Source of the DNA: a virus | Lineage: Duplodnaviria > Heunggongvirae > Uroviricota > Caudoviricetes | Strand: one strand, 5' to 3' | Length of the DNA stretch: 64,000 nt | Virus record (IMG/VR): IMGVR_UViG_2724679293_000007 | Coordinates: 34,885 to 98,884 of that record | Made by a program: the position numbers and the translations under genes | The notes under the pieces: model-generated | Told to the model about the DNA's origin: nothing | The model's database searches: none | Seen by the model: only the letters and a program-made list of their open reading frames with translations | Part shown: positions 54,408-60,116 of the stretch, one piece after another | Numbering within the stretch: position 1 is the first letter of the stretch | Layout: each line of letters opens with the position of its first letter

Positions 54408-54653
54408 TTGGCAGAACGTGTTGATGATGCAGAGCTGAGCATGAATCAGTTAGAAGCTCTCAAAGACATGGCCATCGATAACATCAGAAAGCAGGCACAG
54501 GTCGTGAGTCAGGTATTTACAGGGAAGTGTCGTTACTGCAATGAACCGATTGAATCAGGCATCTATTGTGACGCTGAGTGTGCGCAATGGCACAGGGAAG
54601 AGCAGGCCGCAAAACAGCGTAAATATGGCATGCGACCGGCAGGATTTGACTGA
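54408..54653 (+). CDS. TraR/DksA-like C4 zinc-finger protein (TTG start)
   Basis: 81 aa; CRYCNEPIE...YCDAEC; GAGG RBS. Confidence 0.55.
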   Translation: MAERVDDAELSMNQLEALKDMAIDNIRKQAQVVSQVFTGKCRYCNEPIESGIYCDAECAQWHREEQAAKQRKYGMRPAGFD

Positions 54654-54655
54654 TT

Positions 54656-55234
54656 GTGTTGCGCTTTACTGAGCAAGAGTATCTGGCTTTCAGTAAGCGC
54701 AGACAGAAAGGATGGGTTAAGCCAAAGCCCAAAAAGGATCCGTTCTTATCACTTGCCCCGGTAAAAGAAGTTTCGCCACATGCGAAGGCGCTTGCAGCAC
54801 TGGCAAAAAATCCTGATCTGCGAGTAGGAAATTGCGAGCACTACGAACAGGTTTTCATTTTTGATTACTTCGAGCGCAATTACCCTGAAATTTATGAGCT
54901 GTTGCATGCAACGCCTAACGGAGGGAAGCGTTCAAAAGCAACCGCCGGGAAAATGAAGGCTGAAGGGCAGAAAAAAGGTTATCCGGACATGAGTCTCGAT
55001 AAAGCATGCGGTATTTATCACGGCATGCGAATTGAGCTTAAAGAACCAAATGGTAAAGCCCCGACGAAAGAGCAGATCGCCTGGATGCGCAGGCTTAGAG
55101 AGGAAGGCTACTACGTTGTTCTTGCGTATGGTGCAGAACAAGCGATTACCGCCATCCTGGAATACATAAGCCTTAAAAAGGGTGAGGCTATTGAGCATGT
55201 ATTGAACGGCGATAAGTGGTTGCATGCTGCTTAA
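54656..55234 (+). CDS. VRR-NUC-type PD-(D/E)xK nuclease
   Basis: 192 aa; ...YPDMSL...HGMRIELKEPNGK... (D...E.K). Confidence 0.65.
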   Translation: MLRFTEQEYLAFSKRRQKGWVKPKPKKDPFLSLAPVKEVSPHAKALAALAKNPDLRVGNCEHYEQVFIFDYFERNYPEIYELLHATPNGGKRSKATAGKMKAEGQKKGYPDMSLDKACGIYHGMRIELKEPNGKAPTKEQIAWMRRLREEGYYVVLAYGAEQAITAILEYISLKKGEAIEHVLNGDKWLHAA

Positions 55235-55430
55235 AATAATAAATTAATTAGTGCATATACGCTCTTTGTGGTAGTGCACTTTAACATCGGGAGAATAATC
55301 GTGTCATCCAAGGTTAATTATGAGTCGCTGGCATCGGTCATGCCGCGTAATAAACAGGAAACAGATGCTGTAGTGGACCCTGTAATCGCTGAAATGAATG
55401 CTCGCCTGGAGGCTGAATTTGCAGCTGAGA

Positions 55431-56060
55431 ATGAACATACCACCCAGGGCGACTAGGACTGTTTTTTGTGTCGGTAGCGGTCCGTCACTCACTCGTGAGG
55501 ACTGTGCTGCTATAGAAAAAACTGGCTGTTCAATCATCGCGGTTAACAATTCCTGGCAGATGTTCGATGACATTTATGCCTTATACGCCGGTGATTTGTC
55601 ATGGTGGAAGCAATACGGTTCCACCATACCGGGAGGGAGGTTCCGCAAAGTGACAGCCAACCTGGCGGCGGCGAAATCATTTTCGTTGGAGTACAGGCGA
55701 TATTGTGGACCGGCGGAAGGGGTAAATAGCGGCGCGCAGGCTATCAGTCTGGCGGCTGAATCAGGGGCTGAAGTAGTGGTATTAGTCGGCTATGACTGTT
55801 CTCTGCAAAACGGCCTTCATTGGCATGGTGCGCACCCTCAAGCTCTACGGAATCCAACGCAGGTGTCTATTTCAAAATGGCAACAGCAGTTCCTGGATAC
55901 CCGCAAAAAACACGCAGATTTACATATTTTGAATGCAAGTAGGAGCAGTGCAATTCAATGTTTCCCAAGAATAAATTTAGAGGCAGTGATCGCGTTATTA
56001 TCGTCGGCAGTGGCCCAAGCGCCGCAAACTTTGTTGCGCCGCGCGGAGTGCCGATTATAG
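55431..56060 (+). CDS. hypothetical protein, paralog A (N-terminal VGSGPS...IIAVN motif); start uncertain
   Basis: Shares VxxVGSGPSxxxxxxxxxxxxxxIIAVN with the next ORF; track ORF 55398..56060. Confidence 0.5.
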   Translation: MNIPPRATRTVFCVGSGPSLTREDCAAIEKTGCSIIAVNNSWQMFDDIYALYAGDLSWWKQYGSTIPGGRFRKVTANLAAAKSFSLEYRRYCGPAEGVNSGAQAISLAAESGAEVVVLVGYDCSLQNGLHWHGAHPQALRNPTQVSISKWQQQFLDTRKKHADLHILNASRSSAIQCFPRINLEAVIALLSSAVAQAPQTLLRRAECRL

Positions 56061-56584
56061 CGGTCAATGGGGCCATCGACTGGCTTAACCGCGCTTCTTA
56101 TTTTTTCACCCTTGATCCATCGCCAGACAATATGCGGCGCGTTGGTCGTGGCCGCCGTCGCCGTGGTGTTTGTTATTGCATGGCGCTACCCGATGTTAAA
56201 GAACGTGAGGTCAGAGACGGCGTTTTGTGCTTCCGTCGTGTGGCTGAGCGCGGCACGGAGCCAAAAAATACGAATTCTCCCGAGTGGTGGGCGTGGCGCT
56301 GGTCCGCACATTTCGGCCTTTGCGAAGATGAGAATGAAATTGCCAGCGGCAATAGTGCATATGGTGCTCTGAACCTGGCTTTCCATATCGGATTCAAACA
56401 TGTAGCCCTGGTGGGCGTTGACGCTACGCAAGAACCACGCGTTCATTCCGGCGGCACGCCAAAAAATCTAAGTCACCTGCCTTTGTTATTCCAGTCTGCG
56501 CGTGAACAGATTGACGTTGTTTCATGCGGGAAAATGGGAGGTATTCCGCAGATGACTCTTAAAGAATGGCTGAAGAATACATGA
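55958..56584 (+). CDS. hypothetical protein, paralog B (IIVGSGPS...IIAVNGA)
   Basis: 208 aa with AGGAG RBS; overlaps paralog A by ~100 nt in another frame. Confidence 0.55.
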
Positions 56585-57957: not shown

Positions 57958-58023
57958 ATTGCTCTAATAATTCCATATTTTTAAAACGTGATGTACACTC
58001 ATCACGTTTTTTATTAGAGCAAT
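57958..58023. promoter_or_regulatory. two C1-operator-like sites in inverted orientation flanking a terminator hairpin
   Basis: ATTGCTCTAATAATTCC (plus, 57958-57974), hairpin aaaacgtgatg-N7-catcacgtttttt, then ATTGCTCTAATAAAAAA on the minus strand (58007-58023). Confidence 0.55.
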
Positions 58024-58257
58024 CTATAAGGTGCACTATGTGGCCATTCCGACGGAAATATCACTACTGGCTGATCGCCTTTGTTACGCCGACCGGCGGT
58101 ATCAGGCATGTCATCACCAGGTATCGCAACAAGAGACTCACCTTAGCCAGAATTTTACAGGCTGCCATAGGTGAGGGACTGGATACAAATTGCGTAGTCC
58201 TTCCTCCTTCATACTTAGGAAAAATGACCGAAGCACAAGCTAATACGGAACTTTGAA

Positions 58258-59520
58258 ATGAGCACTTCAGCACAAAACCAATCAATCGAAAATGTATCTA
58301 TCCCTGATGTCCTGAATGCCGGTATCCCGGCCATTATCCAGAACATCCGGGCCGCGCAACGCCGCGTTAGTTGTGATGACCTCACAGCACGTTTTTTTGA
58401 TAATGCGGTTCAGTCAGCGGAGATGCTTCACGCACAGCTTATTGATGTTTATAACGCAGAAGCTGATAGCCATAACTCCCTGGTAGATGCAGCTGAAAAT
58501 ATGCAGTTGGATCTCGGTCTGAAGGGTAAAGAAATTGAAGAGCTTCAGCTGGAAATTGAACATTTGAAACGCCAGCAACAGGACGCGATCGAAGATGCGA
58601 CGCATGACGCCAACCAGCGTGCTGATAATGCCGAACGTATAAGCATTGAGCTGGAAACAAAACTCAATGAAATGACCGCGATGGTTGAACTGCGGAACTC
58701 ACAGATTTCAACGCTAAAATCTCAATATAAAGAGATCATGAAACTTGATCCTTTTAACCTTGAGAAACGCTATAACAAAGCTAAAAGCGAGCGACAGGAA
58801 CTGCGTAAGCAGGTCGCCGACCTTAACCAACAGCTCAAAAAAACTATTAAAGATGCAAGCGAAGCGCGCGTGGCATTTGCTAATAAAAAAGCAGAGGTTA
58901 CCGCGCTGGTTAATGAGAATGCCAAATTTGCGACGCTCAAGAAGGAAATGTATGGCATTACTGAGCGCCGTTTCCCTGCAAGCAAACTTCATCCGACGTT
59001 AGGGCAAATCTCCTTCTTCCCGCGCCTCCTGGCTTATGGGATCTCATCGCCTAAAGAGTTCAATAACGAGCGTCCTTATATCGTTTCTAAGCTGGACTTT
59101 GCTTATCAGTTCTGCTGCGACATGGGCTATGCCATTGATATCCGGATCAACGAATGGTTGATGCCAAACTTCCAGCCGTTGGCCATTTTCCGCGAGTTCC
59201 AGCCGGAAGGTTGGGTAGAGTTCTTCCATGAATTGATCTGTAAAGAGATGGAAAGCCGCCGCCCGGAACTGGTCCGTCGAGTTGAGTGGGCGCAAGAGGT
59301 TATGTTGGCAGAGGCAGAGCTGCCGTTCGAACCGGAATTTATTGATGATCTGGCAGCTAAAGGGCTGCATACCCTGTTTGATGTGGTTACCCGCCGTCAT
59401 GAGCAGTTGGTTGTCGAATTGGGTTTAGAGGAAACAGCGGCAAGAAGACTTCTCGATGTTTGCTATGCACGTAGCGATGCATGGGAAAAAGAGAACGGCG
59501 GCACTATTTACGTTCGCTGA
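58258..59520 (+). CDS. coiled-coil protein
   Basis: 420 aa; long heptad-rich central region (residues ~90-230). Confidence 0.6.
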   Translation: MSTSAQNQSIENVSIPDVLNAGIPAIIQNIRAAQRRVSCDDLTARFFDNAVQSAEMLHAQLIDVYNAEADSHNSLVDAAENMQLDLGLKGKEIEELQLEIEHLKRQQQDAIEDATHDANQRADNAERISIELETKLNEMTAMVELRNSQISTLKSQYKEIMKLDPFNLEKRYNKAKSERQELRKQVADLNQQLKKTIKDASEARVAFANKKAEVTALVNENAKFATLKKEMYGITERRFPASKLHPTLGQISFFPRLLAYGISSPKEFNNERPYIVSKLDFAYQFCCDMGYAIDIRINEWLMPNFQPLAIFREFQPEGWVEFFHELICKEMESRRPELVRRVEWAQEVMLAEAELPFEPEFIDDLAAKGLHTLFDVVTRRHEQLVVELGLEETAARRLLDVCYARSDAWEKENGGTIYVR

Positions 59521-59593
59521 TAGTTACAGTGTCACTTTTAATGCTGGTGGAGTGCGTCCCACCAGCATTTTTTTCGTCCAATGAGGAGGGCAT

Positions 59594-60100
59594 TTGAGTA
59601 TTTTCAATAAACACGCACACCAGGAACGTCCGTATATCGTCATAGTAGATATTGATGGGACGATATCGGAGGCAACGGAAGACAGACTGCATTTGCTTCC
59701 GCCACCAGGTAAAGGTGCATTAACAAAGGACTGGAACGAGTTTAATCTCGCCTGTGACACCGATACTCCCATCACTCCAGTTATTGATATGGTGCGCCAG
59801 TTATTTAACGTTTACACGGTCTGGTTTGTAACCGGGCGCTGTGAGATCGCAAGGGATAAAACACGAGCTTGGCTGCGGAAGTACGTAACAAACGGGGCTG
59901 AGCCTTTGCTATCTATGCGTCCTGCCACCGATGACAGAAATGACGGCCCAGCAAAGATTGATCTCCTTAAGAAAATTGGTCTGAGTAAAATTGCGTTCGC
60001 GCTGGAAGATAAGATTGAAGTGGCGCGTGTTTTCAGGAGACACGGCGTACTTACGTTAATGGTCAGGGAGTATGAAAACGCGCTTCTCCATCAGCAATAA
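59594..60100 (+). CDS. HAD-superfamily phosphatase-like protein (TTG start)
   Basis: N-terminal IVIVDIDGTIS (DxDGT motif); GAGGAGGG RBS before the TTG. Confidence 0.65.
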   Translation: MSIFNKHAHQERPYIVIVDIDGTISEATEDRLHLLPPPGKGALTKDWNEFNLACDTDTPITPVIDMVRQLFNVYTVWFVTGRCEIARDKTRAWLRKYVTNGAEPLLSMRPATDDRNDGPAKIDLLKKIGLSKIAFALEDKIEVARVFRRHGVLTLMVREYENALLHQQ

Positions 60101-60116
60101 TTGCTCTAATAAATCT
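60100..60116 (+). promoter_or_regulatory. C1 operator (16/17) overlapping the stop of the HAD gene
   Basis: ATTGCTCTAATAAATCT. Confidence 0.65.

Follow-up and report, generated by a model that had tools for sequence, protein, structure and literature searches.

The pmgO, pmgP and pmgQ genes of phage P1 as a conserved cassette with a possible role in virion glycosylation

What a block of ten small phage genes does, and whether its members act together, is the question raised by positions 54408-60116 of the DNA analysed here. The window is a stretch of 64,000 nucleotides (nt) from a tailed-phage record (IMG/VR IMGVR_UViG_2724679293_000007, positions 34,885 to 98,884), and the block matches positions 78602-84309 of phage P1 (AF234172 / NC_005856) with 97.8% identity over its full length of 5709 nt. 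P7, SJ46, RCS47 and other P1-like phage-plasmids match it at 97-98%. In the P1 records the genes of this stretch are pmgL, pmgM, pmgN, pmgO, pmgP, ppp, pmgQ, pmgR, pmgS and pap, and in the window all ten open reading frames (ORFs) are intact and match their P1 counterparts in length. There is hardly any doubt that the block is the pmgL-pap segment of P1, and given this identity and the matching annotation its detection is the re-discovery of a known, annotated locus. An earlier sequence-only reading of the window did not recognise it as this well-annotated region, for which deletion and CRISPR interference (CRISPRi) data exist. The ORFs and motifs described in that reading (zinc finger, VRR-NUC, paralogs, PPP phosphatase, YLDLDT, coiled coil and DIDGT) are all present and intact, although it overlooked the small genes pmgN and pmgR.

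The pmg genes have carried the placeholder 'putative morphogenetic function' since the records were annotated. The locus, its genes and the labels 'alpha-2,3-sialyltransferase' and 'glycosyltransferase' are already public. What is new here is the recognition of pmgO, pmgP and pmgQ as a conserved cassette, the natural fusions among their products, the placement of the cassette in late and head operons, and the hypothesis of virion glycosylation for P1. The best explanation of the whole, to which we give about an even chance, is a late-acting cassette that would build a glycan on a virion protein, with the remaining genes of the block as independent accessories. An unexplained gene set is thereby turned into a directly testable hypothesis, and deletions of pmgO, pmgP and pmgQ already exist.

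Co-occurrence of pmgO, pmgP and pmgQ across phages

Loci were drawn from GTDB genomes, IMG/VR and Logan/JGI contigs, annotated with hidden Markov models (HMMs) of the three protein families, and clustered at 85% PmgP identity, which left 27 lineages with at least 2 kb of flanking sequence on both sides. A PmgQ homolog occurs with PmgP in every one of these non-redundant lineages (27/27) and a PmgO homolog in 22 of the 27; an HMM search of the whole library gave 590 clusters at E<=1e-3. The hosts are Enterobacterales, Pseudomonas, Ochrobactrum, Brevundimonas, Alloalcanivorax, Zhongshania, Microbulbifer and Methylophilaceae, and additionally Sinomicrobium (Bacteroidota) and Longimicrobiales, so that every host taxon seen to carry the cassette is Gram-negative. 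Natural fusions join O to P (P0051), P to Q (P0302, P0366) and Q to P (P0382), and others include a methyltransferase (Q-P-methyltransferase in P0349, methyltransferase-P in P0387). The fusions and the strict co-occurrence argue that PmgO, PmgP and PmgQ act in one pathway or complex, and a single glycosylation pathway made up of the three is probable.

The other genes of the block do not follow this pattern, as Ppp, PmgL, PmgM, PmgN, PmgR, PmgS and Pap join the trio only in P1-like elements. The sequence-only reading had suggested that the whole block might act together, as one coordinated host-takeover or signalling/modification unit. This would fit the dense head-to-tail order of the genes, whose stops and starts overlap, behind shared C1-controlled promoters, and the conservation of the block as a unit in P1, P7, SJ46 and RCS47 and also in a 50-70% diverged P1-like element from Pantoea (L088). 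However, outside P1-like elements no genes of the block but O, P and Q co-occur. The ppp gene, which in P1 is inserted between pmgP and pmgQ, was considered as a member of the trio and rejected: no non-P1 lineage has it between P and Q, three P1-sized contigs (L116, L124, L125) have P followed directly by Q with no ppp, and in phage D6 it stands alone among unrelated genes. The latter two observations also count against a block-wide unit, as does the genetic evidence. In-frame single deletions of pmgL, pmgM, pmgN, pmgO, pmgP, pmgQ, pmgS, ppp and pap caused no plaquing or antirestriction defect, whereas deletion of pmgR, the only essential gene of the block, left heads and tails unjoined (PMC9024508). 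PmgR is thus a head-tail joining factor. A CRISPRi screen concurs with the deletions except for pmgN and pmgR, with pmgN essential by CRISPRi but dispensable by in-frame deletion (PMC10695390). The CRISPRi score of pmgN is likelier a polar or off-target effect of the knock-down, though no downstream gene is essential either. Nothing points to a DNA modification or signalling role for the block. We consider a single block-wide unit quite improbable, and PmgO-PmgP-PmgQ is the sole multi-gene functional module of the block.

Additional genes were seen within or beside the cassette in other phages. In four loci a gene encoding 185-203 amino acids (aa) lies between the P and Q homologs, in the position that ppp has in P1 (L096 8570-9139, L101 8881-9438, L107 9522-10133 and L109 9585-10160); the L107 product has Pfam matches to S-adenosylmethionine (SAM) methyltransferases, and in L109 a methyltransferase gene lies directly 3' of Q. 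A conserved protein of about 192 aa with the N-terminus '..SFYT..W.Y..' is encoded directly after the PmgQ homolog in L004 (9757-10335) and L106 (11254-11835). It occurs in at least two unrelated phages and not in P1, the L004 protein (9757-10332) has no Pfam match, and it is possibly a fourth cassette enzyme.

Folds and families of the three proteins

The sequence-only reading held that no product of the block could be assigned from sequence, though it saw most of them as enzymes rather than structural proteins and the GSGPS pair (PmgO and PmgP) and the DxD protein (PmgQ) as transferase-like. The general picture is borne out, and the assignment can be taken further than that reading allowed, to glycosyltransferase family 8 (GT8) for PmgQ and to a Maf / MptE / GT42 fold for PmgO and PmgP. 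A PmgQ profile of 40 sequences matches GT8 structures, with 6mw5 at E 1.2e-8 and others down to 1e-5. The AlphaFold2 model of PmgQ has a predicted local distance difference test (pLDDT) score of 95, and all of its top Foldseek matches are GT8 enzymes, namely the Skp1 alpha-galactosyltransferase 6mw5, glycogenin, LgtC, GlyE and WbbM (probability 1.0, E 1e-8 to 1e-6, template modelling score ~0.58). Residues D36, D79, D81, D149 and P213 are invariant in the 40 homologs, and D79 and D81, which belong to the YLDLDT motif, align to the DxD of 6mw5 and glycogenin. In the C-terminal FFHGKPRP segment H208, G209 and P211 are at least 90% conserved and align to the H..G..KPW of the same two enzymes. PmgQ therefore has the GT-A fold and both motifs, DxD and the C-terminal H-x-G-x-(K/R)-P-W, in common with the AgtA-type Skp1 galactosyltransferase (6mw5), glycogenin, LgtC, GlyE and WaaJ/WaaO, but it is smaller (233 aa) and only 12-18% identical to the GT8 structures.

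PmgO and PmgP were described in the sequence-only reading as paralogs that share an N-terminal motif, and this kinship is real although distant. BLASTP aligns only the VGSGPS...IIAVN N-terminus of the two proteins (E 0.003). When the fusion protein is left out, the profiles of the two families align across 160 columns, nearly the full length, with a probability of 97.5% and an E value of 8e-12, and by this comparison of sequences PmgO and PmgP are genuine distant paralogs. The family core of PmgO spans aa 25-202, followed by an unconserved tail (203-220), and an alignment of 17 homologs shows N50, D66, N110-S-G, D133 and H141/H143/H146 to be invariant. Fold evidence for the pair comes from the AlphaFold2 model of PmgP (pLDDT 94.3), which falls within the superfamily of the MptE-like, Maf and GT42 sialyltransferase fold and resembles thiamin pyrophosphokinases (~9) and mammalian sialyltransferases (9.0) in structural comparison. 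Modelling of the O-P fusion P0051 from a combined alignment was dropped, since MAFFT had placed PmgO homologs on the PmgP-like domain. The pair can be assigned to the Maf / MptE / GT42 sialyltransferase-like fold, with PmgP as the member that was modelled.

The chemistry of the pair is suggested by its relatives. Both families have the Cst-II-like motifs GxGPS and NS(G/A)...GxD, and with a combined O+P profile the GNGPS loop and TSG...GIDFY motif of Cst-II can be aligned, though the match to the Campylobacter GT42 enzymes Cst-I and Cst-II (2p56, 1ro7) falls short of significance (E 0.12-0.2); searches of PDB sequences with the PmgO profile and with the PmgP profile found nothing meaningful. 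The usual hosts of the cassette have no sialic acid donor, and the public database label 'alpha-2,3-sialyltransferase' over-states what can be said of these proteins. The Maf flagellin glycosyltransferases (Magnetospirillum Maf, PDB 5mu5) are 17% identical to PmgO/PmgP, but they are proteins of ~630 aa with extra flagellin-binding domains whereas PmgO and PmgP are bare cores of ~200 aa. Pseudaminic or legionaminic acid is, to our knowledge, not made by E. coli K-12, and the only CMP (cytidine monophosphate)-activated ulosonic acid donor that we know of in that strain is CMP-Kdo. PmgO and PmgP are putative glycosyltransferases, probably with a CMP-sugar donor.

The overlap of about 100 nt between the two genes had been singled out as unusual and possibly an artefact of mis-called starts. 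The codons for the conserved beta1-GSGPS segment of PmgP lie at 56006-56020, upstream of the pmgO stop at 56060, so the overlap is not due to a mis-called start. The conserved parts of the two proteins hardly compete for the same DNA: the unconserved tail of PmgO overlies the GSGPS segment of PmgP, and the unconserved first 15 codons of PmgP, whose residues have low pLDDT, overlie the last conserved helix of PmgO. The arrangement is also less unusual than it had seemed. O-P junctions overlap in other lineages by ~7 to ~130 nt, usually in the -1 frame, and in P0051, from one phage contig, O and P are a single protein of 376 aa. This is a translational-coupling overlap, variable from lineage to lineage, and one phage has the gene pair as a fusion. 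A programmed -1 frameshift from PmgO into PmgP was considered, as slippage at the canonical heptamer A_AAT_TTA (55973-55979), read in the pmgO frame, would lead into the pmgP frame. However, it is absent at the equivalent position of the other O-P junctions examined, including those of the P1-like L088, L128, L129 and L131, and frameshifting was rejected because of this lack of conservation. Additionally, a slippery heptamer occurs by chance in ~7% of such overlaps, and the fusion product would lose the conserved last helix of PmgO.

Late-gene placement and the proposed acceptor

The neighbourhood of the cassette was examined in 22 representative non-P1 lineages, with counts that rest on a simple, crude ORF caller and on Pfam counts. 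On the same strand and within 4 kb upstream, these gave portal genes in 10 lineages, major capsid genes in 8, prohead protease genes in ~6 and terminases; other upstream neighbours are antiterminator Q or genes for Rz, holin or lysozyme. Genes inside the cassette or downstream of it encode tail-completion gp17 (6), head-completion protein (5), HK97 gp10-like (5) and gp6-like connector (4) proteins, tape-measure proteins, ~6 class-I SAM methyltransferases and 4 FkbM-type methyltransferases. Gene maps run from capsid through cassette to head-closure genes in Ochrobactrum, Pseudomonas and the Logan metagenome contig L109, and from lysis genes through cassette to terminase in Alloalcanivorax and in Citrobacter phage phiNP. 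The maps and counts together place the cassette always among late, lytic-cycle genes in the lineages examined. The P1 cassette is under C1 repression, and a late promoter is annotated for it as well.

Our proposal is that PmgO, PmgP and PmgQ would form a soluble, cytoplasmic cassette that builds a short glycan late in lytic growth. PmgO and PmgP, with their Maf / sialyltransferase fold, would probably use a CMP-activated ulosonic acid, and PmgQ would act as a retaining GT8 hexosyltransferase, probably with a UDP (uridine diphosphate)-sugar. The three enzymes may work in succession, probably as a complex, and the methyltransferases of other lineages would cap their sugars. A virion protein made by the phage would be the most likely acceptor, and glycosylated particles would result. 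Head-module synteny, lytic-only expression and the precedent of mycobacteriophages are the grounds for a virion acceptor, which we put somewhat below an even chance. The wider claim, that P1 and many other phages with Gram-negative hosts use an unrecognised three-enzyme cassette, often together with methyltransferases, to glycosylate the capsid or some other protein of their own particles, is more doubtful still. The lack of a plaque defect in the deletion mutants fits a decoration function.

The precedent comes from Freeman et al. (2023), who, as summarised in PMC12363180, describe phage-encoded virion glycosylation in the mycobacteriophages Che8 (gp110), Corndog (gp38) and Myrna, by soluble, cytoplasmic glycosyltransferases acting on capsid or tail-tube proteins. 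A methyltransferase was suggested as a possible participant in that system (PMC12894461). The likeness to the P1 cassette is an inferred, functional one, as the mycobacteriophage enzymes belong to other families, whereas on the P1 side there are a Maf/GT42-like pair and a GT8 enzyme in Gram-negative hosts. In our literature search virion glycosylation was not reported for a single phage with a Gram-negative host and no paper tied the O-P-Q cassette to any function, and a search on MptE-like, DUF115 or Maf domains in prophages returned nothing relevant.

Several points weigh against the proposal, and some of them favour other explanations. There is no direct evidence of any glycosylated P1 virion protein, and the P1 virion-proteome paper and two P1 cryo-electron microscopy papers never mention glycans. 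The cassette of P1 does not adjoin the capsid gene; among the other lineages, over half gave no upstream capsid gene, several of these having lysis or antiterminator genes there instead, and the crude basis of the neighbour counts should be borne in mind. The Pfam family Glyco_transf_8 (PF01501) does not match PmgQ, nor does any Pfam family at E<=0.1. With its kinship visible only by family profile or structure, PmgQ is a divergent GT8-like clade. For the other two proteins the Pfam family PF01973 (MptE-like) scores 23.4 bits with PmgO and 20.9 bits with PmgP against a gathering score of 34.6, although a relative, P0337, passes it with 44.1 bits and several homologs have a precomputed PF01973 annotation. 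Foldseek matches of PmgP are weak, though to the same families, with MptE the best at E 1e-3, and the MptE-like fold includes pyrophosphokinases at nearly the same Z score (12.6 vs 13.4).

These last results would also suit PmgO and PmgP as MptE- or thiamin-pyrophosphokinase-like kinases or nucleotide-binding proteins that act on a small molecule, a nucleotide or DNA, with PmgQ and the methyltransferases acting on their product. MptE is the best Foldseek match, and 'MptE-like' is the only Pfam family touched. However, the constant partner of the pair is a GT8 glycosyltransferase, methyltransferases of the sugar-modifying type are frequent partners, and Cst-II can be aligned with the pair at the GxGPS and (N/T)S(G/A)...G-x-D motifs. 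Hypermodification of P1 DNA, moreover, is not known to us. Kinases or nucleotide-binding proteins are accordingly judged improbable.

The main rival explanation concerns the acceptor. GT8 and WaaZ-like enzymes also build the core of lipopolysaccharide (LPS), and as all hosts are Gram-negative an LPS acceptor fits the enzymes equally well. LPS core glucose is the receptor of P1. The trio could therefore be a WaaZ-like Kdo transferase pair with a GT8 hexosyltransferase that remodels the host LPS core, which would block superinfection or the loss of progeny on cell debris. WaaZ, the KdoIII transferase of the LPS inner core of E. coli K-12, would use CMP-Kdo, which is universal in Gram-negatives. 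A faint precomputed Pfam match to WaaZ_KDO_III is present on the O-P fusion homolog P0051, hhalign against E. coli K-12 WaaZ lines up the equivalent NS(A/G)...G-x-D motif with PmgO/PmgP, and GT8 includes LgtC and, by annotation, the LPS-core enzymes WaaJ and WaaO. However, the similarity to WaaZ is not significant (hhalign probabilities of 15.6% for PmgP and 6.9% for PmgO), and membership of the pair in the WaaZ / KdoIII transferase family is not supported. The cassette is C1-repressed in P1 and lies in late operons elsewhere, which would leave it off in lysogens, where masking of the receptor would pay, and LPS made late in the lytic cycle would presumably replace only a fraction of the LPS on the surface. 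It is also often wedged between capsid and connector genes, and it is found in non-P1 phage records, namely a 116-kb coliphage from sewage and, at ~30% identity, jumbo Xanthomonas and Stenotrophomonas phages. LPS remodelling is rather unlikely on this evidence, and virion glycosylation is preferred.

The enzymatic nature of the products bears on the original annotation too. The names 'pmg', 'hdm' and 'sht' stand for morphogenetic or structural proteins, in keeping with the map position of the block in P1, between tail and baseplate genes and with a late promoter, and with the true requirement of pmgR for head-tail joining. However, PmgM, PmgO, PmgP, PmgQ, Ppp and Pap have enzyme folds, the deletions still plaque (PMC9024508), and the main text of the virion-proteome paper makes no mention of pmgL, pmgO, pmgQ or pmgS by name. 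Structural or morphogenetic roles for these genes are very improbable.

If P1 particles are glycosylated, this bears on phage stability, immune recognition and the gut behaviour of P1-based vectors and phage-plasmids, and the classic P1 transducing particles would bear a glycan. If the LPS core is the target, the cassette would represent a new kind of lytic-cycle receptor modification.

Capsid-sized ORFs upstream of the cassette end in a short Gly/Ser-rich C-terminal tail in 6/6 loci listed: L096 5841-7214 (...GNLSGAS), L097 3396-4628 (...GSLKDGS), L104 7900-9330 (...SGATGS), L106 8155-9375 (...GSLSES), L109 6268-7590 (...FGNVSG) and L123 3563-4759 (...DDLASS). Pfam annotates those of L104, L106 and L109 as Phage_capsid. 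L106 is a Pseudomonas prophage of HK97 type in which the cassette comes straight after the capsid gene. As a candidate site of glycosylation the tail was seen in a set made up of cassette-bearing loci only.

Remaining genes and control elements of the block

The features of the block are collected in Table 1. Its genes form C1-repressed transcription units, pmgL-pmgM, pmgN-pmgQ and pmgR-pmgS followed by pap, and are mostly dispensable accessory genes. No transmembrane segment is found in any block protein, and NCBIfam returned nothing for 8/10 of them, Ppp having the sole meaningful match and PmgS only coiled-coil (SMC/Rad50) noise.

Table 1. Genes and control elements of the pmgL-pap block, in window coordinates
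Feature	Position	Strand	Basis and remarks
Late promoter LPpmgL and sigma-70 promoters	~54301-54371		P1 annotation
C1 operator O26/Op82	54334-54350	-	P1 annotation by offset; reads ATTGCACTAATGTTTTT on the minus strand, 4 mismatches to consensus
pmgL, 81-aa DksA/TraR-like zinc-finger protein	54408-54653	+	phrog_54 'DksA-like zinc-finger', E 1.7e-13
pmgM, VRR-NUC (PD-(D/E)xK) nuclease	54656-55234	+	PDB 4qbl VRR-NUC, E 5.8e-17
C1 operator Oppp/Op83	55241-55257	-	P1 annotation; reads TATGCACTAATTAATTT on the minus strand, 4 mismatches
pmgN, 51 aa, GTG start after GGAG	55301-55456	+	phrog_2350 (unknown function); 59-nt overlap with pmgO
pmgO, first Maf / MptE / sialyltransferase-like paralog	55398-56060	+	phrog_4603, E 4e-74
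pmgO/pmgP overlap, 103 nt	55958-56060		pmgP in -1 frame
pmgP, second Maf / MptE / sialyltransferase-like paralog	55958-56584	+	
ppp, lambda-type (NinI/PrpA-like) PPP-family Ser/Thr phosphatase	56566-57258	+	Metallophos, PRK11439, phrog_246
pmgQ, GT8-like, GT-A fold, DxD glycosyltransferase, 233 aa	57255-57956	+	profile, AlphaFold2, Foldseek
C1 operator OpmgRa/Op86a	57958-57974	+	P1 annotation and consensus match; overlaps promoter PpmgR
11-bp hairpin then T-run, terminator-like	57983-58010	+	between Op86a and Op86b; free energy (dG) -13.1 kcal/mol, z -5.4
C1 operator OpmgRb/Op86b	58007-58023	-	P1 annotation and consensus match
pmgR, 72-aa essential protein	58038-58256	+	P1 annotation; PMC9024508
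pmgS, 420 aa, coiled coil ~aa 60-235 and C-terminal domain	58258-59520	+	phrog_1660
Intrinsic terminator 3' of pmgS	59540-59569	+	dG -18.6 kcal/mol
pap, stand-alone HAD phosphatase, polynucleotide-kinase-phosphatase type	59594-60100	+	HAD_PNKP, 4xrp, phrog_415
C1 operator OpmgT/Op88, right-hand boundary	60100-60116	+	P1 annotation and consensus match

Ppp, PmgL, PmgM and Pap each supply an independent accessory function of a single gene, with nothing to connect them to the trio. Three of them, Ppp, Pap and PmgM, are typical or borderline members of known families, represented by the lambda phosphatase NinI and E. coli PrpA/PrpB, by T4 Pnk and Clostridium Pnkp1, and by the VRR-NUC nucleases. 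Ppp has the motifs GDLHG (27-31), GDLIDRG (56-62) and GNHE (82-85) and matches PF00149 Metallophos (E 7.9e-16, 59.5 bits vs a cut-off of 21.5), PRK11439 (E 6e-83) and the NinI-like phrog_246 (E 1e-113). An 89%-identical ppp lies among small genes of lambdoid nin-region type (ead/Ea22-like, DUF4752 and others) in phage D6 (L188 4447-5139), for which the PmgP search of the phage collection returned no homolog, and ppp behaves as an independently mobile gene. PmgM scores 21.1 bits with Pfam VRR_NUC, just below the cut-off of 23.8, and matches phrog_5702 'Holliday junction resolvase' at E 4.5e-27. Pap has DIDGT at aa 19-23 and matches Pfam HAD_PNKP (PF25109; 46.5 bits vs a cut-off of 27.6) and Pnkp1 (4xrp) at E 2e-4. 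The HAD domain alone covers its 168 aa, with no match to a P-loop 5'-kinase domain such as Pnkp enzymes have, so Pap is a stand-alone phosphatase and not a Pnkp. PmgL has no Pfam match above noise, zf-dskA_traR included; its Cys spacing is CxxC-x9-CxxxC, which looks atypical against what we take to be the DksA/TraR spacing. For PmgS, searches of Pfam, NCBIfam and PDB gave only weak coiled-coil matches.

The annotation of P1 lists five monovalent C1 operators here (O26/Op82, Oppp/Op83, OpmgRa/b = Op86a/b and OpmgT/Op88), along with predicted sigma-70 promoters and the one late promoter, LPpmgL. The operators that the sequence-only reading had placed around the block, as well as its operator-terminator-operator structure (57958-58023), are present at the P1-annotated positions. 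With up to 3 mismatches the C1 consensus ATTGCTCTAATAAATTT has 8 matches in the window, compared with 0.26 expected by chance; the two left-hand operators, at 4 mismatches each, are identified from the P1 annotation. O26/Op82 is placed between the divergent gene 26 and pmgL, and its 3' part is unlike that of P1.

Between 54313 and 54342 the window differs from P1 (L001 ~2406-2434) at two places in this pmgL/26 control region. The annotated -10 of LPpmgL reads TTGATCATTT in the window and TTGAATATTT in P1, and 2 substitutions and a 1-nt indel fall in the 3' part of O26. The window variant may differ from P1 in the strength of its late promoter or in C1 binding.

At the other end, collinearity with P1 stops exactly at OpmgT. 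The 2.9 kb to its right have no phage record with at least 80% coverage, and within 60117-63000 some parts are 99.2% identical to Stx2c-converting lambdoid phages and others resemble records of P7 or of P1 variants. The pmgT-equivalent ORF (60295-61035, 246 aa) is only ~45% identical to its counterpart in the P1-like element L087. The junction at OpmgT looks like a mosaic junction at an operator. Further matches to the C1 operator were found elsewhere in the window, at 24027, 25717 and 41281, and an overlapping pair of opposite orientation at 44557-44573 (+) and 44568-44584 (-) looks like a bivalent operator.

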